Assembly (NCBI GenBank): GCA_030669305.1
Contig: DAOVDU010000004.1
Location: forward strand, 1 to 55,115
DNA: 55,115 nt
Source of the DNA: Candidatus Aminicenantes bacterium
GTDB taxonomy: Bacteria; Acidobacteriota; Aminicenantia; Aminicenantales; Aminicenantaceae
Reading direction: 5' to 3'
Shown here one piece after another: positions 1,714 to 17,202 of this stretch. The position numbers were made by a program, and so were the translations under genes. How positions within the stretch are numbered: position 1 is the first letter of the stretch; every line of letters begins with the position of its first letter. The notes under the pieces were generated by a model. The model made no database searches. It saw nothing but the letters and a program-made list of their open reading frames with translations, and was not told where the DNA came from.

Positions 1714-1759
1714 TGCCGAACATAACTCATCTTTTAATTATGAGATTAACTGAAGGGTA

Positions 1760-3541
1760 ATGAATAGTAAGAAAGAAAAACGAATTGGTATCTTCATCTG
1801 TCATTGTGGTAAGAACATAGCTGGAGGCCTAAATATAGAATCTTTAGTCGAAAGCTCAAGACAAATACAGGGAGTTGTATATGTTATTGATAATAAGTTT
1901 TCCTGTTCTGAAGATGGTCAGGTCGCCATCCAGAAGGCAATTCAAAATCAGAAATTGGACAGAGTAATTATAGCTGCATGTGATCCTGCTTTGCATCTAA
2001 TGACTTTTCAAAGATGCGGTAAAAAAGCTGGAATAGAGCCAGGATTTGTGGATTTAATTGACATCAGAAAATGGACTATGCATGGAAGTCCGCATAGAGT
2101 CGACCCAGAACAAGCATTTGAGAAATCAAAGAAGCTCATTGAGTTAGCTGTAAAAAGGATGCGCTTAAAACGATTAATTCCTTTGGTTGAAGTAAAGGCT
2201 GAGCAATCAGTTTTGGTTATTGGAGGAGGTGTAGCCGGGCTGGAAGCAGGCTTAGATTTAGCGGATAAAGGTTATAGAGTGTATATTGTTGAACGGCTAC
2301 CGACTATTGGGGGGAAAATGGCGTTACTTTACAAGGTTTTTCCAACAAACGATTGTGCCCCCTGCATATTGGCCCCTAAAACAGCATATGCCAATATACA
2401 CCCTAATATAAATTTGTTAACCAACTCAGAAGTAAAGAGTGTAGAGGGTTATATAGGGAACTTTGACATTAAAGTCATTCAGAACCCACGATATATTGAC
2501 GCAAAAATGTGTACTGGCTGTGGAGAATGTATAGAAAAATGTCCTTCTAGAGTGATAGACAATGTATATTCGGCTGGAATGGGAGAGAGAAAAGCCATAT
2601 ATATTCCTTATGATCAGGCTATCCCAAAAAAGGCTATTATTGATGCTGAACACTGTCTTTATCTTAGAAGCGGTGCTTGCAGCTTATGTGAAAAGGTATG
2701 TCCTACTGATGCTATAGATTTTGAGCAACGAACTAGAACAATCAAGCTGAAAGTGGGGGCTATAATTGTTGCCACAGGTTTTGATGAATATAATCCTACA
2801 GAAAAAAGTGAATATGGATACGGACGATATGATAATGTCATTACTCAATTTCAACTAGCAAGGCTTTTAGACATTGATGGTCCAACAAAAGGTAAGCTTT
2901 TGAGACCGAATGACGGTAGGGAGCCAAAAAGTATTGTTATGATCCAATGTGTTGGTTCACGCGACGAAAATACAAATGCTTATTGTTCCAATATTTGCTG
3001 TATGTATGCATTGAAACATGCCCAGATGATCAGAGAGATGGTTTTGCCTGATACTGAAATCTATATTTGTTATATAGATATGCGTACAACGGGTAAAGGC
3101 TTTGAAGAGTATTACAGAAAAACCAGGGAGCTCGGTATCAATTTTATCCGCGGAAGACCCAGCGATATCATAGAAGAGACAGATACAAGAAACCTTATTT
3201 TGAAAGTGGAAGATCCTGATATCGGTAGACTCCTAAAAATAGAAACAGACTTAGTTGTTCTCTCTTGCGCCACGATCCCATCTTCAGGCACAAGACAGCT
3301 CTCGCAGATTCTACAAATAAACTTGGATGAAAATGGCTTTTACAAAGAAGTTCATCCTAAGCTTCGTCCTGTAGAAACAAATGTTCGCGGAATTTATATA
3401 TGCGGCGCCGCACAAGGTCCTAAGGACATTCCGGATTCGATAGTTCAAGCCAGAGCAGCCGCTTCCTTTTTGGATAAAGAGCTAAGGGAAGCTAAAATAA
3501 AGCTTCCCGAATATATAGTAAAAGCAATAAAACTAAATTAA
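1760..3541 (+). CDS. hdrA: Heterodisulfide reductase subunit A family (HdrA-1; no C-terminal ferredoxin domain)
   Basis: CHCG N-terminal domain, GGGVAG, FPTNDCAPC, inserted 2x[4Fe-4S] motifs, QCVGSRD..YCSNICC and GPKDIP. Confidence 0.93.
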   Translation: MNSKKEKRIGIFICHCGKNIAGGLNIESLVESSRQIQGVVYVIDNKFSCSEDGQVAIQKAIQNQKLDRVIIAACDPALHLMTFQRCGKKAGIEPGFVDLIDIRKWTMHGSPHRVDPEQAFEKSKKLIELAVKRMRLKRLIPLVEVKAEQSVLVIGGGVAGLEAGLDLADKGYRVYIVERLPTIGGKMALLYKVFPTNDCAPCILAPKTAYANIHPNINLLTNSEVKSVEGYIGNFDIKVIQNPRYIDAKMCTGCGECIEKCPSRVIDNVYSAGMGERKAIYIPYDQAIPKKAIIDAEHCLYLRSGACSLCEKVCPTDAIDFEQRTRTIKLKVGAIIVATGFDEYNPTEKSEYGYGRYDNVITQFQLARLLDIDGPTKGKLLRPNDGREPKSIVMIQCVGSRDENTNAYCSNICCMYALKHAQMIREMVLPDTEIYICYIDMRTTGKGFEEYYRKTRELGINFIRGRPSDIIEETDTRNLILKVEDPDIGRLLKIETDLVVLSCATIPSSGTRQLSQILQINLDENGFYKEVHPKLRPVETNVRGIYICGAAQGPKDIPDSIVQARAAASFLDKELREAKIKLPEYIVKAIKLN

Positions 3542-3556
3542 GGAGGCTCATAAATC

Positions 3557-3820
3557 ATGGAAGAAGTCTACGTGGAAGAATTTATGTCTCCTGGATGTGT
3601 AGGATGTCCAGCAGTCAAAGCAATGCTTGAAGGATTATCCGTTGAATTCAAAGACAAATTAATAGTTGAGGAAGTGGATATCACTGTGGATACTGCAAGA
3701 GCGACACAATACGGCATAATGTCAGTTCCTGCTTTAGCTATCAATGGTATCCTTAAATTTGTGGGCGTCCCCAGTAAGGAGGAACTAAAGAAAGCGATTT
3801 TGGAGGAGATTGAAGGATAA
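3557..3820 (+). CDS. Small thioredoxin/glutaredoxin-like protein
   Basis: CVGC motif, SVP cis-Pro, FVGVP. SD AAGGAGG upstream. Confidence 0.88.
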   Translation: MEEVYVEEFMSPGCVGCPAVKAMLEGLSVEFKDKLIVEEVDITVDTARATQYGIMSVPALAINGILKFVGVPSKEELKKAILEEIEG

Positions 3821-3827
3821 AAATAAG

Positions 3828-4355
3828 ATGAAGCAGGATAACAGTCAAAGTGAACCTATTCGGATATCAAAGCTTGATCCAAAATTTAAATCAGAAGTTA
3901 TGAAACACAAAGATGCTCAGGGATTAAATGCTTGTTTTGCCTGCGGAACCTGTACTGCTGGATGCCCTGTTCATGAAATATTTCCTGAATATGATCCAAG
4001 AAAGTTGGCTAAAATGGTGAAACTGGGAATGAGAAAAGAAGTACTGAGTATTCCTTATATTTGGTATTGTGTTACCTGCCACAATTGCGAGCAACGCTGC
4101 CCACAGAATGTAAAGTTCTTTAATATATTGAACGTGTTAAAAAATATGGCAGCAAAAGAGGGCTATGCCCCTTCTCCATGGGTTGAACAAACTCAGCAGA
4201 TTATGCAAACAGGCATAGTATTCCCTAAGGATGAAGAATTGGCTAAAAAGAGAGAATCCTTTTTTCTTCCAGTTTTAAAAAGTGACTGTAAAAAGGCCAA
4301 AAAGCTGATCGAGTTAGCAGGCCTTGATAAAATTAAAGCAAAGAAACAAAGTTGA
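3828..4355 (+). CDS. hdrC: Heterodisulfide reductase subunit C
   Basis: CFACGTCTAGCP and WYCVTCHNCEQRCP. ATG at 3828 is preferred over TTG at 3810. Confidence 0.9.
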   Translation: MKQDNSQSEPIRISKLDPKFKSEVMKHKDAQGLNACFACGTCTAGCPVHEIFPEYDPRKLAKMVKLGMRKEVLSIPYIWYCVTCHNCEQRCPQNVKFFNILNVLKNMAAKEGYAPSPWVEQTQQIMQTGIVFPKDEELAKKRESFFLPVLKSDCKKAKKLIELAGLDKIKAKKQS

Positions 4356-5246
4356 ATGAATAGATATGCTTTATTTCTAGGTTGCACTACTCCAACCCAA
4401 GTCATTCAATACGAGCTTTCTTCTAGATGGGTTTGTAAACATTTAGGGATTGAGCTAGTTGATATCGACGATTTCGTCTGCTGTGGAATCAACCAGATCA
4501 ATTTAAGTCAAGAAGCAGGATTGATGTTAGCAGCAATGAATTTAGCTCACGCTGAAGCAAAAGAGTTAGATATTCTCACGCTCTGTGCTGCATGCACTGG
4601 AGCTTTAGCAGAGGCTGTAGAAAGTTTAAAGGATCAGGAAACTAGAGATAGAGTAAATAGGAAATTGCAAACAATAGGCCTAAAATATAACGGAAGAACT
4701 AAAGTGAAACATATTTCAAGAGTTTTATATGAGGATGTGGGGATTGATAGAATAAAAATAAAAATAAAAAGAGATTTATCAAAGTTCCGAGTCGCCCCTC
4801 ATTATGGCTGCCACTATTTAAAGCCAGAATCTGCGTTTGAAGGATTTGATGATCCGGATAACCCGAAGACCCTTCATCAACTTATTTCTGCCACTGGCGC
4901 CTTCCCTGTTCAATATGAGACCCTCAACTTATGCTGTGGAGGGAAGAGCTTTCCGATTTCCAAGGAGCCAGCTTTTTATCTGGTACAAAAAAAGCTTGAT
5001 AACATTATGGGCAAAAAAATAGACTGCATGGTTGTTCAGTGCCAAACTTGTTATCTTATGTATAGCGATCAACAAAAAGTGATAAATGGTAGGTTTAAAA
5101 AACAATATAACGTTCCTGTTCTTCTTTATCCTCAACTTCTTGGTATTGCTTTAGGTGGGGATCCGATAAATGATCTCGGACTTAATTCAAATACAGTCTC
5201 TTTGAATAGTCTTCTTGCTAAAGGAGAAATAAATAAGCAGCTTTAA
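4356..5246 (+). CDS. hdrB: Heterodisulfide reductase subunit B
   Basis: Two CCG domains: LGC...CCG...CAAC and HYGCH...CCG...CQTC. Confidence 0.92.
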   Translation: MNRYALFLGCTTPTQVIQYELSSRWVCKHLGIELVDIDDFVCCGINQINLSQEAGLMLAAMNLAHAEAKELDILTLCAACTGALAEAVESLKDQETRDRVNRKLQTIGLKYNGRTKVKHISRVLYEDVGIDRIKIKIKRDLSKFRVAPHYGCHYLKPESAFEGFDDPDNPKTLHQLISATGAFPVQYETLNLCCGGKSFPISKEPAFYLVQKKLDNIMGKKIDCMVVQCQTCYLMYSDQQKVINGRFKKQYNVPVLLYPQLLGIALGGDPINDLGLNSNTVSLNSLLAKGEINKQL

Positions 5247-5248
5247 AT

Positions 5249-5339
5249 GTTTTGAGCCCAATTGGGATTTTTTCTCTTTATCTTAAGCATCACAAAAATG
5301 ACTATCCTTTGATGCAATTATCTTATATGGAATTAAAGG
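5249..5339 (+). pseudogene. Duplicated internal fragment of the upstream methyltransferase gene (direct repeat copy 2)
   Basis: Translates to PIGIFSLYLKHHKNDYPLMQLSYMELK, compared with PEGIFSLYPMHHKNDYPLMELANMKLE in the intact gene. Starts 2 nt after the hdrB stop. Confidence 0.88.
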
Positions 5340-5404
5340 GAGCAAGCCCGTTCCCAAGTATCAGAGCTTATCACAGAAATGGAGATGTTAATTTTAAAAA
5401 TTTA

Positions 5405-5470
5405 TTGAAAAATAATTTTTTTTATAATATAAGTAAATGTTTATATAATAATATAATTATTTGCTTATTT
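5405..5470 (+). promoter_or_regulatory. Sigma70-like promoter with two tandem palindromic boxes (putative ArsR operator)
   Basis: TTGAAA(5405)-17-TATAAG(5428). Boxes ATATAA-N8-TTATAT at 5427-5446 and ATATAA-N8-TTATTT at 5451-5470. The region is AT-rich, so chance matches are possible. Confidence 0.5.
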
Positions 5471-5474
5471 TTAG

Positions 5475-5747
5475 ATGACATCAAAAACCGACCGTAAAAA
5501 AGCTGTTCAACTCTTTAAAGCCCTCTCTCATTCAACTCGCCTCCTAATTGTACAAAAGCTATTAGAAGGGGAAAAATGCGTGAATGATATCAGAGATCTT
5601 TTTGATGTGAGCCAGCCAAATATCTCTCAACATTTAAACATATTGAAATTTTCTGGAATTGTTGATTTTCTCCAAGAAGGCAATTTGCGTTGTTACTTTT
5701 TAAAAAATCCAGAAAGAATAAAAAAAATAATCCAAGCTATTAAGTGA
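5475..5747 (+). CDS. ArsR/SmtB family transcriptional regulator
   Basis: FKALSHSTRLLI, EKCVND and VSQPNISQHL winged-HTH signature. Confidence 0.92.
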   Translation: MTSKTDRKKAVQLFKALSHSTRLLIVQKLLEGEKCVNDIRDLFDVSQPNISQHLNILKFSGIVDFLQEGNLRCYFLKNPERIKKIIQAIK

Positions 5748-5837
5748 GTGGCAAGAAATCGAAGGACTAAATAGGTTTTTGCAATTAATTTTAATAAGCT
5801 TATTTATGTAAAAAAAAAACTTTTAAGGAGGTTTCAT

Positions 5838-6191
5838 ATGGCAAAAGTAGCAATTACGGTTAATGGCTCAGAACCCGGAAATGTATTTCCAGCTTTCATT
5901 TTAGGCTCTTCTGCAGTCGCATCAGGAGATGAAGTCATTATATTTTGCACTCCCGGCGGTTCTCCGGTTATGGTCAAAGGCATTATCGAAAAAATGGAAG
6001 TTAAAGGCTTGCCAAATCTGCTTGAATTATTCAATGGCCTAAAAGAACTAGGTGGAAAAATTTATGTCTGTGAACTGGCTTTAGACGCGAAAGATCTTAA
6101 AAAAGAAGATTTCAGGGAAGGCATAGAAATCATCGGCGCAACAACATTCATAAACGAAATCAAGGATGCTACTATAACTTTTTCTTTTTAA
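5838..6191 (+). CDS. DsrE/DsrF-like sulfur-relay family protein
   Basis: DEVIIFCT, GGKIYVCELAL (conserved Cys) and IIGATTFI...TFSF DsrE-like ending. SD AAGGAGG. Confidence 0.82.
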   Translation: MAKVAITVNGSEPGNVFPAFILGSSAVASGDEVIIFCTPGGSPVMVKGIIEKMEVKGLPNLLELFNGLKELGGKIYVCELALDAKDLKKEDFREGIEIIGATTFINEIKDATITFSF

Positions 6192-6245
6192 AAGAAATTT
6201 GTCCCATCGATTCTGTTAATTCTTAACCGCAAAGGAGGAGATAAA

Positions 6246-6470
6246 ATGGCATTAAAAACACTTGACACTTTAGGACTTAAGTGCCCCCAACCTATATTAA
6301 AGGTGGCAATTATGGCCCCTCAGATGAACCCAGGGGATATCCTTGAGATTCAGGCTGACTGCGAATCTTTTCCCAAGGATATAAAAGCCTGGGCTGAAAA
6401 GACCGGAAAAACTCTGCTTTTCTGTAACGATGAAGGTGGAGGAAAATTTAAAGCTCAAGTCCAATTTTAA
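6246..6470 (+). CDS. tusA: TusA/SirA sulfur carrier
   Basis: LDTLGLKCPQPIL CPxP motif, 74 aa, SD GGAGG. Confidence 0.9.
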   Translation: MALKTLDTLGLKCPQPILKVAIMAPQMNPGDILEIQADCESFPKDIKAWAEKTGKTLLFCNDEGGGKFKAQVQF

Positions 6471-6559
6471 CAGGAATCATGGTATATTCTTAACTCTCTG
6501 AGAATACATCTTCCTTTCTATCGCAGATAAAATCTAATATATAAAGGAATTGTCAGACT

Positions 6560-6985
6560 ATGAAACAAGATTTTAAACCTAACATAGTAGGCTTCTTATG
6601 TAACTGGTGTTCTTATGCAGGAGCGGATCTTGCTGGGTCAAGCAAACTAGAAATAAAGCCCTACCTATCTGTCATAAGAGTTATGTGTTCCAGTCGGGTC
6701 AATTCGAATCTAGTCTTAAACGCTTTCCTCTGGGGAGCCGATGGGGTTCTAATTGCTGGATGTCATCCTGGTGACTGCCATTATGAAAAAGGAAATTATT
6801 ATGTAAGGAGAAGGTTTGCTTTGCTTAAGAAAATTCTGGAAACATTAGACCTTGAACCAGACCGACTCCAGCTTTCTTGGATATCAGCATCTGAGGGAAA
6901 GCGTTATGCTGAAGTAGTAAATAAATTTGCTGAAGATATCACTCGATTGGGACCTAGCGCTTTTCACACTAATCCTAATATTTAG
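6560..6985 (+). CDS. mvhD: MvhD/FlpD [2Fe-2S] subunit, copy 1
   Basis: FLCNWCSYAGAD, RVMCS, GCHPGDCHY and WISASE motifs. Confidence 0.93.
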   Translation: MKQDFKPNIVGFLCNWCSYAGADLAGSSKLEIKPYLSVIRVMCSSRVNSNLVLNAFLWGADGVLIAGCHPGDCHYEKGNYYVRRRFALLKKILETLDLEPDRLQLSWISASEGKRYAEVVNKFAEDITRLGPSAFHTNPNI

Positions 6986-7001
6986 GCAAAATAGGGGAAA
7001 A

Positions 7002-8276
7002 ATGAAAAACCCAAATGTTTTGGTAATAGGATCCGGCGTTGCTGGAATGGAGGCCAGCCTAATACTAGGCGAGGCAGGACAGAAAGTCTATCTCATTGAA
7101 AAAGAATCACTGATCGGAGGTCAAACTATTAAATTCGAAGAAGTCTATCCCAACATGGAATGCGCGACTTGTATGGTTGCCCCTAAGCAACAAGAAATAC
7201 TTCAGAATGAAAACATTGAGTTGTTCTTGCTCAGTGAAGTCGAACAGGTTAAAGGCTCTGTCGGGGAATTTAAGGTCAAAATCAAGAAAAAAGCTCGCTA
7301 TGTGAGCTTAGTCAATTGCATCGGTTGTGGTGCCTGTTATGAGCCGTGTCCGGTCAGTCTTGAGAACGAATTTGAGGAAGGCCTTTCAAAAAAGAAAGCA
7401 ATAGCCGTTGCCTGTCCGGGTGCTCTCCCCAATGTTCCCGCTATTGACCCTGAAAATTGTCTTCGTCTCAACGGTAAGAAGAAAGAATGTCAGGCATGTA
7501 AAGAAGCCTGCATGTTTGACGCGATCAATTTTTCTGAAAAAGATGAAATTCTTGATCTAGAAGTAGGAGCCATCTTAATCGCAACAGGATTTGGACTGCT
7601 TGATGCCAAGAACTTACCCCAATATGGCTACAGAAAAGCCAAGAATGTCTACACTGCAATGGAGTTTGAAAGACTTTACGCAGCAAATGGTCCCACTGAA
7701 GGAAAGCTTGTTCTTAGAGATGGAGAAACACCAAAATCAATCGCTATAATCCACTGTGTAGGTCGATCTGAGCAAGGATATTGTTCAGGAGTCTGCTGTA
7801 TGTATTCCACGAAATTTTCTCACTTCCTGAAACACAAAATACCTGAGGCTAAAATCTGCGAATTTCATACTGACCTATGTATTCCTGGCAAATCACACCA
7901 GAAATTTTATCAGAAAATACTTAATCAAGGCGTAGATTTTATTCGCTTTGACGATATAAAAGTGGAAGAAAAAAATGGTAAGATGCAGGTCATTTACAAA
8001 AACGGAAATGGCGAAAAAGACAAATTCATTGCTGATATGATTATATTATCTCCTGCTATGATACCAGGAGGAGATACAGAAAGTCTGGCTAAAACTATTG
8101 GAATCAGCTTGGATAAAAAAGGCTTTTTCTCAACACAAAGTGAAAAGCTCTCTCCTGTTGCAACCGCTGTGGATGGTATTTTTGTTGCCGGATGTGCAGA
8201 AGGCCCCAAAGATATTCCAGGCTCCATCGCTCAGGCTGAAGCGGCCGCAGGAAAAATTCTATCCATCCTCCGTTAA
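7002..8276 (+). CDS. hdrA: HdrA-family flavoprotein (HdrA-2; no N-terminal or C-terminal ferredoxin domain)
   Basis: GSGVAG, YPNMECATC, inserted CIGCGAC..CP and CQACKEAC, HCVGR..YCSGVCC, GPKDI. ATG at 7002 follows AGGGGA. Confidence 0.88.
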   Translation: MKNPNVLVIGSGVAGMEASLILGEAGQKVYLIEKESLIGGQTIKFEEVYPNMECATCMVAPKQQEILQNENIELFLLSEVEQVKGSVGEFKVKIKKKARYVSLVNCIGCGACYEPCPVSLENEFEEGLSKKKAIAVACPGALPNVPAIDPENCLRLNGKKKECQACKEACMFDAINFSEKDEILDLEVGAILIATGFGLLDAKNLPQYGYRKAKNVYTAMEFERLYAANGPTEGKLVLRDGETPKSIAIIHCVGRSEQGYCSGVCCMYSTKFSHFLKHKIPEAKICEFHTDLCIPGKSHQKFYQKILNQGVDFIRFDDIKVEEKNGKMQVIYKNGNGEKDKFIADMIILSPAMIPGGDTESLAKTIGISLDKKGFFSTQSEKLSPVATAVDGIFVAGCAEGPKDIPGSIAQAEAAAGKILSILR

Positions 8277-8318
8277 GCTACGATTATTTAATGTTTTTTA
8301 AGTTGAGGATCAAAAAAA

Positions 8319-10004
8319 ATGAATGAAAAAATTGGAGTATATGTTTGTGAATGCGGACCCAACATTTCAGAAAGAATAGATATCGATAGAGTTTTGGAAG
8401 AAATATCTTCGGCAGAAGGTGTTAAAGTTGCTAAAAAATTTGGACTTCTTTGTTCCAATGACGGCAAAAATTATCTTGCAGATGAGATCAAAAAGGAAGA
8501 ATTAACCCATCTTGTTGTCGCTGCCTGCTCTCCAAGAGAACACGAACAGACTTTCATGAATGTATGCCTGGAGGCAGGTTTAAATCCCTATTTGTTCCAG
8601 CTAGTAAATATCCGCGAACAATGCGCCTGGATGATATCTGACAAAGAAGAAGCAACCAGGATGGCTATAAAGTATATCTATGCCGGAATTAGTCGCGTCA
8701 CTCTGCATAAACCGCTTCTGAAAAAAGAACTCGACAGCATTCCAGACGTTCTGATCATCGGAGGGGGTATTTCTGGCATTGAAGCTGCCCTCTGTTTAGC
8801 CGGGAAGGATCGAAAAGTATATTTGGTTGAAAAGACAGAATCATTAGGCGGAATGGTAAAAAAATTTTTCGAGCTTCTTCCTTATCAGGGATCAAATTTA
8901 GCCGTTATCGAAGAAAAAATTGAACAGGTTCAGAACAACGAAAATGTTGAGATATTAACCTCAAGCGAAGTCGAAGATGTACGCGGCTTTTTGGGGAATT
9001 TCGAAGCAGTTATCAAAAGCAAGAGTAATGGTTCAGAAACCAAAGAGATTAAAATCGGGGCTATTATAGTTGCTACCGGATTTAAGTTGTTCGATCCTAA
9101 GAATATACCACAATACGGATATGGAAAAATTGAAAATGTTCTGGATGCTTTGGAGTTCGAGCAAATGAGTGCTTCAGGAAAAATCTTGCTCAAGAACGGG
9201 AATCCACCCAAATCTGTTGCCCTTATACATTGTGTAGGTCGAAACGAAAAAGGTTACTGCTCTAAAGTTTGTTGTCTCTATTCGATAAAATTTGCCCGCC
9301 ATCTCCAAGATAAGCTACCAGGCATTGATGTGTCCGAATTTTACTCGGACCTTTGTCTTCCTGACAAAGCTGATCAGGATTATTTTGAAGAGGCAAAAAA
9401 GAAAGGAATCCATTTCATCAGGGCAGACAATCTCGAACTTAAGGAAAAAGATGGAAAAATAAATGTGGAGTACAAGGTTGCTGGAGGCAAAAAAGATAGT
9501 ATCGCCGTGGATATGGCTATACTTGCTCCTGCCATGGTGCCTTCCGAAGATACTTCAAAATTAGCTGAGATACTTAATCTCCCTCTTGATGAGACAGGAT
9601 TTTTCAAAGAAGTTCATGAAATGCTTGACCCAATCTCAACCCCGATCGAGGGCGTTTATGTGTCTGGCTGCGCCTTGGGCCCTAAAAATATTCCTGAATC
9701 GATTATACAATCTCAAGCTGCATCGGGAAAAATCCTTTCCAGCCTTATCCCTGGTAAAAAAATAGAGCCAGAAGTTAAAGTCTCCGAGATTAGAGAAGAA
9801 TTTTGCACAGGTTGCCAGACGTGTCTCTCTGTCTGTTTCTACGGAGCCATCAGCTTTGATGAATATAAAGGTATCTCAGTTGTCAACGAAGCGATATGCA
9901 GAGGATGCGGGAGCTGTGTCGGCATTTGTCCTTCTGGAGCGATCAGGTCCAAACACTTTACATATCCCCAGCTGTACCTCGAAGTTCTCCAGGCTTTACG
10001 ATAA
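8319..10004 (+). CDS. hdrA: HdrA-family flavoprotein (HdrA-3; N-terminal domain plus C-terminal ferredoxin, no inserted ferredoxin)
   Basis: VCECG...AACSP...NIREQC, GGGISG, HCVGR..YCSKVCC, C-terminal CTGCQTC and CRGCGSC motifs. Confidence 0.9.
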   Translation: MNEKIGVYVCECGPNISERIDIDRVLEEISSAEGVKVAKKFGLLCSNDGKNYLADEIKKEELTHLVVAACSPREHEQTFMNVCLEAGLNPYLFQLVNIREQCAWMISDKEEATRMAIKYIYAGISRVTLHKPLLKKELDSIPDVLIIGGGISGIEAALCLAGKDRKVYLVEKTESLGGMVKKFFELLPYQGSNLAVIEEKIEQVQNNENVEILTSSEVEDVRGFLGNFEAVIKSKSNGSETKEIKIGAIIVATGFKLFDPKNIPQYGYGKIENVLDALEFEQMSASGKILLKNGNPPKSVALIHCVGRNEKGYCSKVCCLYSIKFARHLQDKLPGIDVSEFYSDLCLPDKADQDYFEEAKKKGIHFIRADNLELKEKDGKINVEYKVAGGKKDSIAVDMAILAPAMVPSEDTSKLAEILNLPLDETGFFKEVHEMLDPISTPIEGVYVSGCALGPKNIPESIIQSQAASGKILSSLIPGKKIEPEVKVSEIREEFCTGCQTCLSVCFYGAISFDEYKGISVVNEAICRGCGSCVGICPSGAIRSKHFTYPQLYLEVLQALR

Positions 10005-10043
10005 TAGTTCTAGATAGACACGTCTGAAAAGAAGGAGAAACCT

Positions 10044-11282
10044 ATGACTGCTACTCAAATTGATAGCAATAAAATGCCAACAAAAGGAGCAATCATCCCT
10101 GCCGAAGAAGAAATCAATAAAACAATTGTTGATATATTTAAAAAATCATTAGAAAAAAAGTGTTTTGATGCAATCTTGATTCCAGTAAGAGTTCCTGAGA
10201 CTGAAGCTTATGCCTGGGTTCTGCTAAAAGACCAGTCTCTGCTTGATGAGGCAAACCCTTTACCACCGATAATCTCGGTTCAAGGAGCAAAGGCCCTTCG
10301 AAGTTTAACCAAACGTGGAAAAATGACTCAGAATATCGCTGCAATTCTAAGGCCTTGTGAGATAAGAGCTGCTGTTGAACTCTCCAAACTAAAGCAAATC
10401 CATTTAGATAATATCAGCCTAATTAGCATAGATTGCCCAGGAGCAATGCCTCTGTCAGACTATCTGGCTGACCCAGAAAAATCTAAAAAAATCTATAAAA
10501 ATGTACTGGAGAAATGGGGAGAAGACGACTCTGTCAGACCCGTATGTCATATTTGTAATCGATTCAGCCTTCCGTCTCTCCTACATCGAAAATCAGTAAA
10601 AATTTCCCCAGTTGAACAAGATGAAGCAAAGATGCCAAGTATTGATTTACACATAGGGCTTCTAGGAGGAAACCAGGAAAAAATATTTCTTATTCCTGTC
10701 AATCCTAAAGGGAGAGAAATCCTGGAAAAACTCGAGTTAAAATCCGATGATTCTTTAGATCTCTGGCAAACTAAAGTGAGTGAAGTCCAAGAGAAAAAAG
10801 AAAAGATAAGAAAAGAATTCAACTTGGAACTTAAAGAAAAAATTGAGGGACAGAAAAAGCTCACTGCTGTGTTTGATGAATGCATCAATTGTCATAACTG
10901 TATGAGAGTATGCCCTATTTGCTATTGTCAGCAGTGCTTTTTTGATTCAGATTCTCTGACTCTTTCTCCTGAAACTTATATTTCAAGAGCAGAAAAAAAG
11001 GGTGCTTTGCGCTTTCCTCTGGATACAATGCTCTTCCATCTGGGCCGGATGTCTCATATGGTACTTTCATGTGTTTCCTGCGGTGTATGCGAAGATGCCT
11101 GTCCGATGTCCATTCCTGTTGCTCAAATATTCAGTCTAGTAGCAGATCAGACTCAGAAGTCCTTCGACTACACTCCAGGAATAAACAAAGAAGAACCTCT
11201 GCCCTTACAAGATTTTCTGGAGGATGAATTTCATGAAGTAGAAACTCCCAGTGAGGCAATGACCCCCGAAGAGGTAAATTAA
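10044..11282 (+). CDS. FdhB/FrhB-like iron-sulfur protein, copy 1
   Basis: LRPCEIRA, IDC, RPVCHIC, CINCHNCMRVCPICYCQQC, and FHLGRMSH..CVSCGVCEDACP. Confidence 0.8.
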   Translation: MTATQIDSNKMPTKGAIIPAEEEINKTIVDIFKKSLEKKCFDAILIPVRVPETEAYAWVLLKDQSLLDEANPLPPIISVQGAKALRSLTKRGKMTQNIAAILRPCEIRAAVELSKLKQIHLDNISLISIDCPGAMPLSDYLADPEKSKKIYKNVLEKWGEDDSVRPVCHICNRFSLPSLLHRKSVKISPVEQDEAKMPSIDLHIGLLGGNQEKIFLIPVNPKGREILEKLELKSDDSLDLWQTKVSEVQEKKEKIRKEFNLELKEKIEGQKKLTAVFDECINCHNCMRVCPICYCQQCFFDSDSLTLSPETYISRAEKKGALRFPLDTMLFHLGRMSHMVLSCVSCGVCEDACPMSIPVAQIFSLVADQTQKSFDYTPGINKEEPLPLQDFLEDEFHEVETPSEAMTPEEVN

Positions 11283-11283
11283 A

Positions 11284-12393
11284 ATGTCTAACGTATTGAA
11301 AATAAAAAAAGGTGTTGAGCAAGGAGTTAACGAGCTTCTCAAATTCCTGTTAGAAAGCGAAAAAGTAAAGGGAATTTTCACTCTAAGAAAAATGAATGAA
11401 AATGGAGCTGTCTCTTACTCCCTAATTACTCATCCCAAAGAGCTGAAGAATGCAGTCCCCCTCTTTCCTCTTATGCCAGTGAATGCTGGAAAAATCCTCT
11501 CTGGCTTTACTTTAAAAAAAGCTATCAATGAACCAATAGCTGCTGTGCTTCGATCCTGCGAATTAAGAGCTTTTATTGAACTCATTAAACGAACTCAGGG
11601 CAGCCTGGAAAATTTTCTCTTAATTAGCTCAACGTGTGGAGGAGTTTATCCTTTAAAATCACTGACTGATGGCACATTTAAAGAACAGGTTTCTCAATAC
11701 TGGGAATCCGCTAAAAATGCCGAGATTGCATCTGACATCAGGCCTACTTGTGCGGCTTGTGAATATTTCATCCCACAGCAAGCTGATATGACTATTGCCA
11801 TAGTTGGGAAAAATGACCTGCAACAGGAATGCAGCATATTTCTAAACACTAAAAAAGGAGAAGAGTTTACCATAGGGGCACCTGGAAACATCGTCTCTGA
11901 AGAGATTGACACCAAAGAAACAACAAAATTACGGGAAAAAAGGCAAGACCAAAAAAAGAAACTTTTTGATGAATTCGAAAAAAACGGGTTCGGGATTAAA
12001 GCTTTGGTAAAGACATTTGCAGCTTGTCTGAGCTGTCATGGCTGCAGTAAAGCCTGCCCTATCTGTTATTGTACATTGTGTGATTTTGACTCTAAAACTC
12101 ATGAATACCTTCCTTCAAGTCACGAGATAGAACTAGAGCAAAAAGGTGGCATCCGAATTCCCCCTGGCACAATTTTTTTCCATATAGGCAGAATGATACA
12201 TATGGCTGTATCTTGTGTTAATTGTGGTATGTGTTCAGACGTCTGTCCGGTAAATATTCCTGTTTCGACAATTTTTTCCAAGGTTGGAGACTCTCTTCAG
12301 AAATTGTTTGACTACCTTCCAGGAAAAGATATCGAAGAACCTGTTCCTTCTGGAACGTATAAAGAAGAAGAATTTACTGAAATCGGAGAATAG
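11284..12393 (+). CDS. FdhB/FrhB-like iron-sulfur protein, copy 2
   Basis: LRSCELRA, RPTCAAC, CLSCHGCSKACPICYC, and FHIGRMIH..CVNCGMCSDVCP. Paralog of the preceding gene. Confidence 0.8.
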   Translation: MSNVLKIKKGVEQGVNELLKFLLESEKVKGIFTLRKMNENGAVSYSLITHPKELKNAVPLFPLMPVNAGKILSGFTLKKAINEPIAAVLRSCELRAFIELIKRTQGSLENFLLISSTCGGVYPLKSLTDGTFKEQVSQYWESAKNAEIASDIRPTCAACEYFIPQQADMTIAIVGKNDLQQECSIFLNTKKGEEFTIGAPGNIVSEEIDTKETTKLREKRQDQKKKLFDEFEKNGFGIKALVKTFAACLSCHGCSKACPICYCTLCDFDSKTHEYLPSSHEIELEQKGGIRIPPGTIFFHIGRMIHMAVSCVNCGMCSDVCPVNIPVSTIFSKVGDSLQKLFDYLPGKDIEEPVPSGTYKEEEFTEIGE

Positions 12394-12428
12394 TGAAACC
12401 TTGAATAATAAGACTTGAAAAGGAGTCA

Positions 12429-12860
12429 ATGGATATGAATGACGAATATACACCAAAAATAATTGGATTTCTCTGTAATTGGTGCGCTTATACAGGCGCT
12501 GATCTGGCAGGTGTATCCAGAATACAAATAACCCCTTCGCTTAGAATAATCAGAGTTATGTGTTCTGGAAGAATAGATCCACTTTTTGTTCTAAAAGGTC
12601 TTCTAAAAGGAGCAGATGGCGTTATGATGATGGGATGCCATCCCGGTGATTGTCATTACCAAAAAGGAAATTATAGCGCTCGCCGGAGATATGTTTTGCT
12701 TCAAAAATTATTTGAGGATCTTGGTTTTGAATCCGAACGTATAGGGCTCTGGTGGGTATCCGCTTCTGAAGGACCAAGATATGCACAAGTGTCTTCAGAA
12801 TTTTCAGAGGAAATAAAAAAATTAGGTCCTAATCCTGTTCGAGAAGAGATATTTATATAA
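12429..12860 (+). CDS. mvhD: MvhD/FlpD [2Fe-2S] subunit, copy 2
   Basis: FLCNWCAYTGAD, RVMCSGR, GCHPGDCHY and WVSASE. SD AAGGAG. Confidence 0.93.
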   Translation: MDMNDEYTPKIIGFLCNWCAYTGADLAGVSRIQITPSLRIIRVMCSGRIDPLFVLKGLLKGADGVMMMGCHPGDCHYQKGNYSARRRYVLLQKLFEDLGFESERIGLWWVSASEGPRYAQVSSEFSEEIKKLGPNPVREEIFI

Positions 12861-13056
12861 GCCAGTTTTACATTAAAACTGTGATTCAATGACTCGAAAC
12901 TGATAATCCAACAGTCAAATTTATTTCAAACATTTGCTCTTTTTGTTATAATATTATGTAAACAAGAATTAATTAATTTTTTTTAATTCTAATTAACTCG
13001 AGATAAACCAATTAAATGCTGGAATTCTTTTAAAAATAGGAGCAATAAGAAAAGCT

Positions 13057-13527
13057 ATGTCCCAGGATGAAGACCTAGAAAAATTTGCTCGCGAGCTTCA
13101 AGAACAGATCTTGGAACAAATCAAGAAGCGGTATTCTGAAATAGTTATCGATCATTGGCAAAACCCAAGAAATTTCAGAAAAATTGGGAATCCAGATGGA
13201 TATTCAAAGGTTAAAGGTTCCTGCGGAGATACTATGGAGATGTTTATAAAAATGAAAGATGAAACAATTATAGAGTGTTGCTTTCAAACCGACGGCTGTG
13301 GTACAAGCATTGCCTGTGGAAGCTTAGCCACAGATATAGCACAAAATAAATCCTTCACTCAGGCTCTGGCTCTTGTCAGCGCTGATGAAATATTAAAACG
13401 CTTCGGCGGATTACCTGAAGCAGATGTCCACTGCGCTCAACTCGCCTCTGAAACATTGAGAAGGGCATTAGCCGATTATCTTTATAATAAAAGAGCTCCA
13501 TGGAAAAAATACTACAGGAAAACCTGA
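13057..13527 (+). CDS. IscU/NifU N-terminal-like Fe-S scaffold protein
   Basis: DHWQNPRN, GSCGD, DGCG and HCAQL (three conserved Cys). Confidence 0.88.
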   Translation: MSQDEDLEKFARELQEQILEQIKKRYSEIVIDHWQNPRNFRKIGNPDGYSKVKGSCGDTMEMFIKMKDETIIECCFQTDGCGTSIACGSLATDIAQNKSFTQALALVSADEILKRFGGLPEADVHCAQLASETLRRALADYLYNKRAPWKKYYRKT

Positions 13528-13618
13528 TCTTCGTAAAGCTGAAAACATAAGCCACAAACATTAAGATTAAAACTAATTGAAACGTGTATAAATTAATTGA
13601 GGTAGATTAAAATTCATA

Positions 13619-13652
13619 TTACGACTTACGACTTACAGCTTACGGCTTACGA
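13619..13652. repeat. Degenerate heptamer tandem (TTACRRC)x5
   Basis: TTACGAC TTACGAC TTACAGC TTACGGC TTACGA. The same unit recurs at 17777-17802 and 17930-17948. Confidence 0.85.
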
Positions 13653-13695
13653 ACTTTACATATTTGCACAAAATCCCTGATTAGAAGGAGTCGCC

Positions 13696-13899
13696 ATGAG
13701 AGAATGCCAAAAAGAACAAAATCTTCAAAATTGCAACTGCACATGGGAGCCCTGCAGCCACAAAGGAATCTGCTGCGAATGCATCCAGTATCACTGGAGA
13801 ATAAAAGAACTCCCTGCCTGCCTTTTTCCCGATGATGTGGAAAAAACTTATGACCGCTCTTTGAGAAGGTTTATCGAGGTATATAAAGACAAGATATAG
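13696..13899 (+). CDS. Small Cys-rich protein (DUF6485-like)
   Basis: [16 protein letters not shown]...ELPACLF pattern. SD AAGGAG. Confidence 0.75.
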
Positions 13900-13905
13900 G
13901 AAACG

Positions 13906-14853
13906 TTGAATAAATCAGAAGATAAAAACAGCTGTGTTCATATCTACGGCCCTGTGCCCTCGAGACGCCTGGGTTTCTCTCTCGGGATAGATATTATTCC
14001 CTTTAAAACATGTACTCTTGATTGCATTTACTGTCAATTAGGCCCGACCACCAGGAAGACTATACGGAGAAAAGAATATTTCTCATCTGAAGAGATTTTA
14101 GCCCAAATTAAAATGAAACTTGCCTCAGGCCAGAGAATTGACTACATCACATTTTCTGGCTCAGGAGAACCAACCCTAAATACTTCAATAGGAAAACTCA
14201 TCAAAGAAATCAAAAAGATAACAGCAATCCCTGTAGCCGTGTTGACAAACAGTACTCTTCTTTCCCGAAAAAGTGTAAGAAATGCTTTGCTATCTGCTGA
14301 TTTTATCGTTCCGTCTTTGGATGGAGTGACTCAAGAAGTTTTTGTTCAAATCAACCGGCCTCATCCATCACTTAAGGCTGAGGAAATCATAGAAGGCTTA
14401 AAAAAATTCCGACAGGAATTCCACGGCTCGATGTTGCTCGAAATCATGTTAGTGAAAGGGATAAATGATTCTCCCGTCCATATCCAAAAGCTTAAAAAAG
14501 TAATCTCCGATATAAAGCCAAAAAGAATTCAGCTCAATACGGTTATCCGGCCTCCCGCAGAAAAATTTGCCTGTTCTTTGAGTCTAGTGGAACTTAAAAA
14601 AATTAACAAAATCTTAGGCGAAAAAGCCGAGATTATCGCTAAATTCGATAAAAAAGAGCAAATACCCCCATCTAAAAATCTGGAAGAGGCTATTTTCTTC
14701 ATGATTAAGAGAAGGCCGGTGACTCTCTCTGATATTTCCGCCTCTCTTGGAAAACACAAGAATGAAATCATAAAATACACCAATTTTCTCCTGGAAGAGA
14801 GAAAAATTAAATGTGTCACACACAAGGGACTGAAATATTATGAACCGACATAA
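13906..14853 (+). CDS. Radical SAM protein (TYW1-like Fe-S oxidoreductase family)
   Basis: YGPVPSRRLG.SLG, CTLDCIYC and GSGEPTL motifs. Confidence 0.88.
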   Translation: MNKSEDKNSCVHIYGPVPSRRLGFSLGIDIIPFKTCTLDCIYCQLGPTTRKTIRRKEYFSSEEILAQIKMKLASGQRIDYITFSGSGEPTLNTSIGKLIKEIKKITAIPVAVLTNSTLLSRKSVRNALLSADFIVPSLDGVTQEVFVQINRPHPSLKAEEIIEGLKKFRQEFHGSMLLEIMLVKGINDSPVHIQKLKKVISDIKPKRIQLNTVIRPPAEKFACSLSLVELKKINKILGEKAEIIAKFDKKEQIPPSKNLEEAIFFMIKRRPVTLSDISASLGKHKNEIIKYTNFLLEERKIKCVTHKGLKYYEPT

Positions 14854-14908
14854 ATGGTAAATGAGGAATGGTGAATAAAAATCCTAGATTAGAGTGTTAG
14901 GAATTGGA

Positions 14909-15421
14909 ATGAAAGAAGTTAAAGATTTGACTAAAGAAGAGCTTTGGGCGCTTTTGAAAGATGCTTCCAAAAACTGGCTTGCCCATGATGGACTCTGGTT
15001 TCGAGCCGTGGAGAATAAATTCGGCATCGATGCTGCTATGGAACTTGACAGGAAGGCATGGGAAAACTTTACAGTCATCGAGGCCAAAAGGATAATGAAA
15101 AGACTCGGGATAGAACCCGGAGGAGGCATTCCAGCACTTGTCCATGCCCTTAAATTCAGACTATATGCACACATCAATGTCCAGGAAACCAAAGAAGTGA
15201 GTGACACACGATGTGTTTTCCATATGAATCGCTGTCGGGTGCAGGAAGCAAGAAAGAGGCAAGGGCTTCCCGATTTTCCATGCAAATCAGTAGGAATCAT
15301 TGAATACAGCGGGTTTGCCAAAACCATAGACCCGAGGATCAAAACCAAATGCCTGGTTTGTCCTCCTGATCCCCATCCTCCAGATGTTTGGTGTGCCTGG
15401 GAATTCACACTTTTGCCTTAA
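14909..15421 (+). CDS. DUF6125-like protein
   Basis: WLAHDGLWF, CRVQEAR..LPDFPC and CPPDPHP..WCAWEF. ATG at 14909. Confidence 0.72.
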   Translation: MKEVKDLTKEELWALLKDASKNWLAHDGLWFRAVENKFGIDAAMELDRKAWENFTVIEAKRIMKRLGIEPGGGIPALVHALKFRLYAHINVQETKEVSDTRCVFHMNRCRVQEARKRQGLPDFPCKSVGIIEYSGFAKTIDPRIKTKCLVCPPDPHPPDVWCAWEFTLLP

Positions 15422-15426
15422 CCCTT

Positions 15427-16074: not shown

Positions 16075-16122
16075 TTTTGAGGAAATTATCAAAAATAATA
16101 TGAAGGAGTTATAGGAGTAATC

Positions 16123-17088: not shown

Positions 17089-17202
17089 AGAAATATGGCT
17101 CTTCAGACTGCAGATGTCCCAGCCATCTGTTCTATTTCTCAAAAAACAACTCTGAATTAATATCTTTAATAAAAAAACTGCCATTTGAGAAGAAGGAAAA
17201 CC

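Follow-up and report, generated by a model that had tools for sequence, protein, structure and literature searches.

A gene module coupling the sulfur carriers DsrE and TusA to a complementary HdrA pair in a Candidatus Aminicenantes bacterium, with a possible role in sulfane-sulfur reduction

Introduction

What does an HdrA-centred redox complex do when its operon is headed by two sulfur carriers and encodes no catalytic hydrogenase or formate dehydrogenase? The question is raised by nine genes at positions 5475-12860 of a 55,115-nucleotide stretch of DNA from Candidatus Aminicenantes bacterium (contig DAOVDU010000004.1, positions 1 to 55,115), which is called the window. HdrA-based electron bifurcation is central to anaerobic energy conservation, and its substrates outside methanogens are mostly unknown. 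In an earlier note, made from the letters alone, the cluster was read as ArsR-DsrE-TusA-MvhD-HdrA-HdrA-FdhB-FdhB-MvhD and interpreted as a sulfane-sulfur-responsive electron-transfer complex.

The eight genes from dsrE through the second mvhD are one conserved unit, and the module is a real, widespread and undescribed variant of HdrA-based complexes. The key structural point, absent from the earlier note, is a pair of HdrAs that are complementary in their domains and cysteines and would form a heterodimer. The operon probably links sulfur handling to energy metabolism. That the complex reduces sulfane sulfur delivered by DsrE and TusA is proposed tentatively, and is weighed below against four other readings.

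Results

Nine co-oriented genes form a redox module preceded by sulfur carriers

The window is contig C94 of its own genome, G000, which comprises 2.06 Mb in 122 contigs and is estimated to be about 91% complete. Other G-numbers below designate other genomes, L-numbers related loci and C-numbers contigs. Nine co-oriented genes on the + strand, with intergenic gaps of 1-90 nt, were identified with Pfam and NCBIfam, in the order expected. They are listed with the block that precedes them.

5405..5471, + strand: conserved promoter-proximal block upstream of arsR; candidate promoter and ArsR operator
5475..5747, + strand: ArsR/SmtB regulator, 90 aa (PF01022, 55.6 bits; NF033788, 77.9 bits, over cut-off)
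5838..6191, + strand: DsrE-family sulfur carrier, 117 aa, active-site Cys78 (PF13686, 56.1 bits; PF02635, 35.7 bits)
6246..6470, + strand: TusA sulfur carrier, 74 aa, CPxP C13 plus C39 and C60 (PF01206, 60.2 bits)
6560..6985, + strand: MvhD/ElpC-type (FlpD) [2Fe-2S] connector, copy 1 (PF02662, 174.9 bits)
7002..8276, + strand: short HdrA, 424 aa, HdrA6/QmoA-like (open reading frame 6927-8276, likely start 7002; aligns with 5odc_A 145-560)
8319..10004, + strand: long HdrA, 561 aa, HdrA5/QmoB-like (matches 8rvu_a, E 8e-113, in two stretches)
10044..11282, + strand: FdhB/ElpB-like Fe-S subunit 1 (FrhB1), 412 aa (sequence matches in the PDB, AlphaFold2 model, Foldseek)
11284..12393, + strand: FdhB/ElpB-like Fe-S subunit 2 (FrhB2), 369 aa (PF04432, 25.7 bits; Fer4_8 match)
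12429..12860, + strand: MvhD/ElpC-type [2Fe-2S] connector, copy 2 (PF02662, 175.1 bits)

The cut-off of PF02662, the FlpD domain with its Cys motif, is 22.3 bits. The claimed lack of MvhAG, FdhA, FlxA and HdrBC inside the cluster was borne out by the domain search, as no NiFe hydrogenase, molybdopterin, NAD_binding_1, FlxA-type or CCG/HdrB domain was detected at 5475-12860 with Pfam and NCBIfam. The cluster had also been described as a duplicated set. The paired subunits are there, but their divergence (57% identity between the MvhD copies, 41-49% between the HdrAs, which differ in domain set, and 35% between FrhB1 and FrhB2) identifies them as old paralogues and excludes a recent duplication.

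The eight-gene unit is conserved across bacteria and archaea

Relatives of FdhB-like subunit 1 were collected with one genome per species. Out of 159 relatives the best 80 loci were kept, and the window proteins were mapped by BLASTP onto all open reading frames of these loci and counted. The split HdrA pair was found in 58/80 loci (type A) and a single fused HdrA in 6/80 (type B), 16/80 being too truncated for this classification. Counts of the upstream genes refer to 52 type A loci in which the upstream DNA exceeds 4.4 kb (scorable loci). TusA is present in 50 of these, DsrE in 47, and MvhD stands ahead of the short HdrA in 51. In the five loci where a carrier is missing from the count, the contig ends (L042, L046), DsrE was undetected (L035), or an insertion shifts TusA and DsrE beyond the counting window while both remain visible in the BLASTP map (L067, L070). 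FdhB-like gene 2 directly follows gene 1 in all 73 loci with enough downstream DNA, and the downstream MvhD comes after it in 61/73; among the other 12, the second MvhD is located upstream of dsrE instead in L027, L053, L054, L063, L066, L067 and L070. The earlier note had made its reading depend on conservation of tusA and dsrE with the hdrA cluster, and this conservation is found across phyla.

The closest relatives are Aminicenantes-labelled loci, with 52-63% identity. Other records are labelled Acidobacteriota, Thermoplasmatales/Thermoplasmatota, Methanomassiliicoccales, Dehalococcoidia, WOR-3, TA06, Stahlbacteria, Zixibacteria, Ignavibacteria and Gemmatimonadota, and the labels cover at least eight bacterial and archaeal groups; some third-party annotation (TPA) labels, among them 'Eubacteriales' and 'Bacteroides', should probably not be trusted. 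In its own phylum the module is rare, with 4 occurrences in 150 other sampled genomes (E ≤ 1e-40). The wide phyletic spread, the patchiness and the fixed gene order together indicate that the operon was transferred as a unit. The arsR gene is lineage-specific, being found in 10/52 type A loci, all Aminicenantes-labelled, and in the type B locus L015.

The type B loci are L012, L015, L019, L026, L033 and L058, with the variant at around 6500-12700 of each locus. Their fused HdrA has about 978 residues and 29-33% identity to the long HdrA; behind it come MvhD, the two FdhB-like genes and another MvhD, and DsrE/TusA are absent. In L058, HdrC-HdrB-HdrA genes lie upstream and MvhD-MvhG-MvhA genes downstream. 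DUF5981 genes (methylene-tetrahydrofolate reductase C-terminal/MetV-like) were observed after FdhB-like gene 2 in Dehalococcoidia-labelled loci (L039:13738-14385, L062:13596-14743; 8/80 by BLASTP), with a divergent MvhD-like open reading frame ahead of them.

Sequence near-identical to the window was found in sequencing runs labelled cold seep metagenome. When runs were searched for words of the window, no matching run was recorded as RNA. Two runs of one study that carry 49% and 24% of the sampled words are labelled RNA-Seq, are flagged 'probably DNA' and consist of short contigs only, which makes them uninformative on transcription.

The two HdrAs are complementary

Both proteins match HdrA chains of known structure (E 1.5e-93 to 8e-113). 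For the short HdrA the alignment covers residues 145-560 of 5odc_A (E 1.5e-93), with C54 and C57 facing C194 and C197. It starts at the FAD motif, has an inserted 2x[4Fe-4S] ferredoxin domain and stops before the C-terminal ferredoxin domain, so that it has neither the N-terminal domain nor the C-terminal ferredoxin domain of complete HdrAs. In the long HdrA, the FAD domain is preceded by an N-terminal Cys-rich domain and followed by a C-terminal 2x[4Fe-4S] ferredoxin domain; the inserted ferredoxin domain and Cys197 are missing. [quoted passage not shown]

This partition was examined by aligning 57 orthologues of the short and 59 of the long HdrA, numbered according to 5odc_A. The Cys194 and Cys197 columns are occupied by Cys in 57/57 short and 0/59 long HdrAs. 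In the long HdrA, the N-terminal C10, C12, C45 and C70 and the eight C-terminal Cys are invariant across the family. The FAD domain has a thioredoxin-reductase-like fold with a GxGxxG motif, and its four-Cys [4Fe-4S] columns are 100% conserved in both families. E356 is kept in 56/57 short and 58/59 long HdrAs, and K409 in 57/57 and 58/59.

In solved HdrA homodimers, the N-terminal cluster of each protomer is ligated by Cys197 of its partner. K409 and E356 are residues that tune the bifurcating HdrA flavin (PMC12054007). A complementary loss was described for the tandem HdrA5/6 and HdrA12/13 of ANME-1 archaea and was read as a heterodimer (Chadwick et al. 2022, PMC9012536). Because the domain and Cys maps of the present pair are complementary, as in ANME-1 HdrA5/6, it is concluded that the two proteins would assemble as a heterodimer that is competent for bifurcation and has one complete low-potential exit.

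The TusA of the module is a dedicated copy, and other sulfur genes join the module elsewhere

The active-site C78 of DsrE is Cys in 51/51 sequences. Against the DsrE2 equivalog, DsrE scores 44.5 bits for a cut-off of 210, which does not place it in that subtype. Classical TusA has a single essential Cys. In the TusA of the module three are conserved, namely C13 in the motif KCPQP (55/55 sequences), C39 (55/55) and C60 (54/55); the extra C39 and C60 may form a polysulfide bridge or bind a metal. Since a second, ordinary TusA of G000 adjoins IscS and NifU on C122, the TusA of the module is a dedicated copy.

Further sulfur genes accompany the module elsewhere. Among the 80 loci, YeeE was counted in 14, an extra TusA in 12, a multi-rhodanese protein in 11 and a CsoR/CstR-like regulator in 8. 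A second TusA, a YeeE/YedE-type transporter and a 4x-rhodanese protein are inserted between the long HdrA and subunit 1 in L067 (6690-9995), and L042, L046 and L070 have genes similar to this insertion. Genes for TauE sulfite exporters stand beside the module in L020, which has two of them, and in L062, and an extra TusA-DsrE-DsrH-DsrE set is found in L076. Together with neighbouring Mvh genes, the accessory YeeE, rhodanese, TauE and CstR-like genes point to a handling of carrier-bound sulfane sulfur that would be reductive in direction.

The genome was searched for enzymes of dissimilatory sulfur metabolism, of which dsr genes had been suggested as a check. No NIR_SIR (DsrAB/AsrC-type) match was found in G000. 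The aprA gene likewise had no match in G000, and exceeded the cut-off in 0/11 genomes of the family. G000 does hold other candidate enzymes for thiosulfate or polysulfide chemistry. On C103, a DsrC-family gene (G000:C103:9215-9517; region L086:4180-6533) lies by a 211-aa open reading frame without family match and a DsrK/HdrD-like protein, and this set adjoins a cysteine desulfurase. It is possibly a DsrC/DsrMK-like persulfide or trisulfide system, DsrC/DsrK being a possible acceptor for carrier-bound sulfur. On C75 (L085:1251-9140), the gene for a PhsA/PsrA-like molybdoenzyme (293.7 bits to PhsA, below cut-off) is accompanied by those for an HdrD-like protein of 657 aa and for NrfD-like and Fe-S subunits; this set is a candidate membrane thiosulfate or polysulfide reductase.

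The FdhB-like subunits keep their clusters, with a degenerate flavin motif

The 'FdhB' identity proposed for these subunits is supported by the alignment of residues 23-386 of subunit 1 with Hdr-bound FdhB/ElpB chains (9t1s_M, E 1e-32; 8rvu_E, 1e-24; 7bkb_E, 1e-19). The AlphaFold2 model of subunit 1, with 47 orthologues, has a mean pLDDT of 83.5. Its best Foldseek matches are ElpB (8rvu_E, TM 0.66/0.70) and Methanospirillum hungatei FdhB (7bkb_E, TM 0.66), followed by the beta subunit of sulfhydrogenase I, FrhB, HCAR and Fsr. The [4Fe-4S] ligands of FrhB are Cys104/134/192/195 (PMC3591093). Ligands of this type are C105, C131, C168 and C171 in subunit 1, and C92, C118, C156 and C159 in subunit 2. 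Like the C-terminal 2x[4Fe-4S] Cys motifs, they are invariant or nearly so in 47 subunit 1 and 43 subunit 2 orthologues.

In this family the FAD pyrophosphate is located where one of the best-conserved helices has its N-terminus (Mills et al. 2013, PMC3591093). The helix-cap position reads ..CGGAVTA.. in ElpB/FdhB alignments, forming a 'GG..T' cap. The cap glycines are gone in the window proteins and in both family consensuses (47 and 43 orthologues). PF04422, the FAD-binding N-terminal domain, was detected at E ≤ 1 in 3/47 subunit 1 orthologues, and PF04432 in 39/47. As judged from alignment and model, the FdhB-like subunits keep the Fe-S ligands and the ElpB fold, and their FAD-helix motif is degenerate. 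Two subunit 1 homologues from the same phylum contain an in-frame stop, TGA in G046:C5:141383-142522 and TAA in G133:C16:32060-33136, which could be due to a frameshift, a sequencing error or, for TGA, selenocysteine.

It had been supposed that F420H2 feeds the FdhB-type subunits. In the Elp-Hdr complex, ElpB oxidises F420H2 at its FAD, and the electrons pass via clusters and ElpC (the MvhD equivalent) to HdrA (PMC12350162). However, cofH (FO synthase) and cofD had no match in G000, which is about 91% complete, and cofH exceeded the cut-off in 0/10 other module-bearing genomes, one of them Methanomassiliicoccales-labelled and 6/10 of unknown completeness. Two sub-threshold cofH hits in G031 (337 and 319 bits, cut-off 374) are taken to be related radical-SAM enzymes. 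As the FAD-helix motif is lost and FO synthase was found in 0/11 module-bearing genomes, F420H2 is an unlikely donor.

A CofE-like gamma-glutamyl ligase of G000 (G000:C24:2516-3430, L084) exceeds the TIGR01916 cut-off. It is encoded on a 6.9-kb contig next to radical-SAM/SPASM, patatin-like, serine palmitoyltransferase-like and acyl carrier protein genes. As a sign of F420 it was ruled out by this gene context and by the lack of cofH and cofD matches in G000; it probably serves something other than F420.

No apparent need for a hydrogenase or formate dehydrogenase encoded elsewhere

Four MvhD genes are present in G000, two in the module, one on C97 and one on C78. The MvhD of C97 precedes MvhG-MvhA, with NuoE/NuoF-GltD-like genes and an HdrC-HdrB pair adjoining, and C78 carries an HdrA-MvhD-FlxC-FlxB-FlxA cluster. 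The only clear formate dehydrogenase of G000, on C82, is of the NuoEF-linked (NAD) type. Since the Mvh and Flx-Hdr loci have their own MvhD and the formate dehydrogenase is of NuoEF type, every known MvhD client is self-supplied. No need is apparent for the module to be the partner of a hydrogenase or formate dehydrogenase encoded elsewhere in G000, the arrangement that the earlier note named as refuting its reading; such a partnership keeps some probability.

In other lineages, MvhG/MvhA are found within the flanks of 12-13/80 loci, mostly downstream and on the same strand, which makes H2 via Mvh a plausible donor there. In Thermoplasmatota-labelled loci they occur together with FlxA/FlxB-like (sulfhydrogenase-type) subunits. 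FdhA-like hits were obtained in 3/80 loci and are of the NuoG type. HdrB/C homologues adjoin the module in 13/80 loci, from other lineages. The thioredoxin and HdrBC genes upstream of the module in the window had been considered as its output. By BLASTP, no homologues of this upstream cluster were found in the 10 ArsR-bearing Aminicenantes-labelled loci, and HdrBC is at most an optional neighbour.

Two regulator families are associated with the module

C35 and C73 of ArsR are Cys in 12/12 sequences. The protein scores 52.1 bits against the BigR equivalog (cut-off 155), and C73 is located in the wing region, presumably unlike the second Cys of SqrR/BigR. In 8 Dehalococcoidia-labelled loci, a CsoR-family regulator stands beside the module. 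Its sequences read Cys...Tyr-x3-Cys, the copper-binding form being Cys...His-x3-Cys; the former is what we take to be the fingerprint of the persulfide sensor CstR. The presence by the module, in different lineages, of two unrelated regulator families with persulfide-sensing members may be regarded as an indirect, convergent sign of reactive-sulfur control, in keeping with the sulfur-responsive control that had been proposed.

The palindromic operator predicted upstream of arsR is indeed an inverted repeat (arms 5426-5446 and 5451-5471, 81% complementary), but it lies in a very AT-rich stretch and the palindrome alone is therefore weak evidence. The region contains TTGAAA at 5405-5410, then 17 nt, TATAAG at 5428-5433, and then TTTAT..TTATAT, a block over which the inverted repeat of the window extends. 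The consensus of nine aligned arsR upstream regions is ..GTTATTGAAAAA...TATAATATAAGTTTATGTTTATAT..., and the TTGAAA-N17-TATAAG block is kept in about 6-7 of the nine (window, L004, L010, L011, L013 and L007, and more weakly L002). Part of the conserved block may be the promoter itself and not an operator. A sigma-70-like site was predicted at 5421-5449. In a scan of 5200-13700, promoter and terminator predictions were not in excess of those in shuffled sequence (23 against 20.4, and 8 against 7.5), and no clean terminator was found between genes, so that the limits of the operon rest on gene spacing only. An open reading frame of 81 aa at 5252-5497, which matches no family and runs through the AT-rich promoter region into the beginning of arsR, is probably no real gene.

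Neighbouring genes in the window

The module is flanked by the following genes.

790-5246, upstream cluster: thioredoxin-reductase-like protein, HdrA (593 aa), MJ0307-type thioredoxin, HdrC and HdrB
13057-17673, downstream run: IscU, DUF6485, radical SAM, DUF6125, methyltransferase, class IV aminotransferase and TrmO

The upstream cluster looks like a thioredoxin-linked Hdr. Its thioredoxin-reductase-like flavoprotein scores 304 bits with TRX_reduct, under the cut-off of 343. Its HdrA has no C-terminal ferredoxin domain and has Ala at the position of E356, and its HdrC-HdrB pair is encoded at 3810-5246. A 228-nt spacer with a promoter-like block separates the cluster from arsR. The downstream run is partly syntenic in L002, L007 and L015, which may reflect lineage synteny or a link with Fe-S maturation.

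Discussion

HdrA, MvhD, FdhB/ElpB, TusA and DsrE are already known, as is the idea of a heterodimeric HdrA from ANME-1. The ANME-1 HdrA5/HdrA6 tandem clusters likewise associate a paralogue that has the N-terminal domain and lacks Cys197 with one that has Cys197 and lacks the N-terminal domain, and include FdhB homologues without FdhA, plus MvhD (PMC9012536). In contrast, TusA and DsrE are not mentioned in the text of that paper, where FdhB-only clusters belong to ANME-1 alone, nor in that of a 2025 survey of HdrA (PMC12054007). By its description the present module is set apart: it is found both in bacteria and in non-methane archaea, its FdhB-like and MvhD subunits always come in twos, DsrE-TusA stand at its head, and its hosts are without FO synthase. 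What appears to be new is the fixed eight-gene unit with its two FdhB-like and two MvhD subunits, the coupling to DsrE-TusA, the spread through F420-less bacteria and non-methanogenic archaea, and the degenerate flavin motif of the FdhB-like subunits. No description of this gene combination was found in the full texts searched; subscription reviews and supplements may hold more.

Regarding function, the proposal of a sulfane-sulfur-reducing, HdrA-centred complex with substrate delivery by DsrE/TusA is founded on the fixed gene order, on the genes for import, transfer and export of sulfur, on the candidate sensors and on the bifurcation-type features. This reading is held to be quite possible, if short of probable. 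The six redox proteins would form a soluble, cofactor-rich complex around an asymmetric HdrA heterodimer. Cys197 of the short HdrA would complete the N-terminal cluster of its partner, the inserted ferredoxin domain of the short HdrA would be the exit to ferredoxin, and the Glu/Lys pair of bifurcating flavins is kept in both proteins. The two MvhD [2Fe-2S] connectors and the two FdhB-like subunits, each predicted to hold three [4Fe-4S] clusters, would wire this core to its partners. The FdhB-like subunits probably do not oxidise F420H2, and are more likely Fe-S wires or a new substrate site.

In this mechanism, TusA/DsrE would bring in sulfane sulfur bound as a persulfide or thiosulfonate. YeeE uptake and rhodaneses would supply it in some lineages, where TauE would export sulfite. 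The conversion of the carrier sulfur to sulfide, an exergonic step, would be linked through the HdrA flavin with ferredoxin and one further redox partner. Where Mvh genes adjoin the module this partner would be H2, by way of Mvh; elsewhere it would be NAD(P)H or ferredoxin. The operon's own two-cysteine ArsR probably represses it at the conserved palindrome, and reactive sulfur would release the repression. Several of these parts recur in the Staphylococcus aureus cst operon, where CstR, TauE and CstA, a rhodanese-TusA-DsrE-like protein, match the CsoR/CstR-like regulator, TauE, rhodanese, TusA and DsrE of the Dehalococcoidia-labelled loci. The cst operon disposes of sulfane sulfur oxidatively, with SQR and a persulfide dioxygenase, whereas the partner here is an anaerobic Hdr-type redox complex. 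Of the overall interpretation given in the earlier note, the coupling to carriers, the module's own MvhDs and the regulators are supported, and the F420H2 feed and a fixed HdrBC/thioredoxin output are not.

A number of points weigh against sulfane-sulfur reduction. No known S-S-cleaving site and no CCG/HdrB domain (Pfam) were found in the conserved core, and where a conserved redox Cys pair was sought in the HdrAs and FdhB-like subunits, only cluster ligands were found. Because the reduction potential of persulfide is not far from that of NAD(P)H, persulfide is a less obvious high-potential arm for bifurcation than CoM-S-S-CoB. The 6 type B loci have both FdhB-like and both MvhD genes yet no DsrE/TusA, so that the redox core can exist without the carriers. 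As for the F420 argument, loss of the motif is no proof of flavin loss, and absence of cofH is weak evidence where the completeness of the metagenome-assembled genome is unknown (6/10). The sequences show the subunit identities, the complementary HdrA architecture, the cofactor ligands and the synteny; expression, assembly and activity of the complex, the direction of its reaction, the donor and the place of S-S cleavage are presumed. A complex prediction of TusA with both FdhB-like subunits (score 0.00, mark 0.32) gave no answer and counts neither way.

Part of this evidence would suit a generic redox-balancing complex, bifurcating or confurcating, for example Nfn-like or a hydrogenase-linked exchanger of ferredoxin and NAD(P)H. 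Its substrates would contain no sulfur, and DsrE/TusA would be accessory, in thiol sensing, maturation or Fe-S sulfur supply. Such a complex would explain why the type B loci do without carriers and why no S-S-cleaving site was found in the core. It would also fit the Mvh hydrogenase beside the module in 12-13/80 loci, the Flx- or sulfhydrogenase-like subunits in 8-12/80, and the IscU gene, which closely follows the module in the window and is found in its vicinity in L002, L007, L015 and L026. However, the strict dsrE-tusA order at the operon head across phyla exceeds what is expected of maturation helpers, housekeeping supply in G000 has its separate TusA next to IscS-NifU, and in other lineages the module is accompanied by importers of sulfur, rhodaneses, exporters of sulfite and CstR-like regulators. 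This explanation is considered unlikely, although far from negligible.

The resemblance to Elp-Hdr suggests an alternative in which the module is a donor unit for F420H2 or another hydride carrier, feeding the upstream HdrA-Trx-HdrC-HdrB set for reduction of a thiol heterodisulfide or thioredoxin. Among solved structures, ElpB and Hdr-bound FdhB, which oxidise F420H2 (PMC12350162), are nearest to the FdhB-like subunits. ElpABC-HdrABC of Methanothermobacter marburgensis (Nomura et al. 2025, PMC12350162; 8rvu) and FdhAB-MvhD-HdrABC of M. hungatei (7bkb) share with the module the FdhB/ElpB fold (TM 0.66-0.70), the FrhB-type and ferredoxin-like clusters, the MvhD/ElpC connector and an HdrA with the Glu/Lys pair. 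The HdrA-Trx-HdrC-HdrB set is directly upstream in the window, HdrB/C homologues adjoin 13/80 loci, and a CofE-like gene is over cut-off in G000. Unlike these complexes, the module has no molybdopterin-family ElpA/FdhA scaffold and no HdrBC in its core, its HdrA would be heterodimeric instead of homodimeric, its two FdhB-like subunits differ from each other, and sulfur carriers are attached. Its FAD-helix motif is lost (PF04422 in 3/47 members), and F420 biosynthesis was not found, there being no cofH or cofD in G000, no cofH over cut-off in 10 other carriers and a CofE-like gene in a non-F420 context on a 6.9-kb contig. The upstream HdrBC genes are set apart by the 228-nt spacer with its promoter-like block, and their homologues were not found in the 10 ArsR-bearing Aminicenantes-labelled loci. 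An Elp-like role is therefore judged very unlikely.

An oxidative role has equally little chance. Sulfane sulfur from TusA/DsrE would then be oxidised, for instance in sulfur or thiosulfate disproportionation, with electrons passed to ferredoxin or H+. The association of DsrE/TusA with Hdr-like proteins is the hallmark of sHdr loci, and the module is comparable to sHdr as an Hdr-like flavo-Fe-S complex genetically coupled to TusA/DsrE carriers and rhodaneses. TauE sulfite exporters beside the module in L020 and L062, and the occurrence of near-identical sequence in runs labelled cold seep metagenome, would be compatible with oxidation. The sHdr system is encoded by hdrC1B1A-hyp-hdrC2B2 with lipoate-binding proteins, has a single HdrA and is oxidative, in aerobes and denitrifiers. 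By comparison, the module has two HdrAs, MvhD and FdhB-like subunits, and occurs in strict anaerobes. It has no HdrB/HdrC or other CCG subunit in its core, no search having been aimed at a lipoate-binding protein. In addition, neither a dsrAB-type (NIR_SIR) gene nor aprA was found in G000, and the hosts are labelled as fermentative or anaerobic lineages.

A Qmo-type complex serving adenylylsulfate reductase in sulfate reduction is also suggested by the short and long HdrA paralogues with MvhD, which resemble QmoA and QmoB of sulfate reducers and their MvhD-like module. Although 'type II' QmoAB close to HdrA has been reported in organisms with or without Dsr/Apr (PMC10504309), this reading is largely refuted, and has hardly any chance left, by the absence of Apr and Dsr (no AprAB or NIR_SIR match in G000, aprA over cut-off in 0/11 family genomes); MvhD is moreover unfused, FdhB-like subunits and carriers are added, and QmoC is missing from the cluster, the qmoC model matching only the upstream HdrC, weakly.

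To return to sulfane-sulfur reduction, a more specific version of it would make the module a new class of cytoplasmic sulfane-sulfur reductase. The HdrA heterodimer would couple reduction of a persulfide, or of a TusA-DsrE polysulfide bridge, to ferredoxin by bifurcation, and S-S cleavage would take place in the vacated flavin/F420 pocket, next to the FrhB-type [4Fe-4S] cluster, without the non-cubane cluster of HdrB. This version is quite unlikely as it stands. If true, 'fermentative' sediment lineages such as Aminicenantes, Thermoplasmatota, Dehalococcoidia and WOR-3 would gain an energy-conserving use of thiosulfate, polysulfide or S0 that escapes gene surveys based on dsr and psr.

This compact and strongly syntenic module has repeatedly changed hosts among the bacteria and archaea that are dominant in anoxic sediments, organisms with few recognised genes for respiration. 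Because the operon itself names TusA, DsrE and candidate sensors, the two-Cys ArsR and the CstR-like regulator, its function is directly testable, even if the link with sulfur were indirect. If carrier-bound sulfane sulfur is reduced, these lineages would have a hidden capacity for sulfur cycling. This would account for the abundant HdrA and MvhD genes of non-methanogens, and would provide a bacterial, F420-free test case for the mechanism proposed for heterodimeric HdrA.

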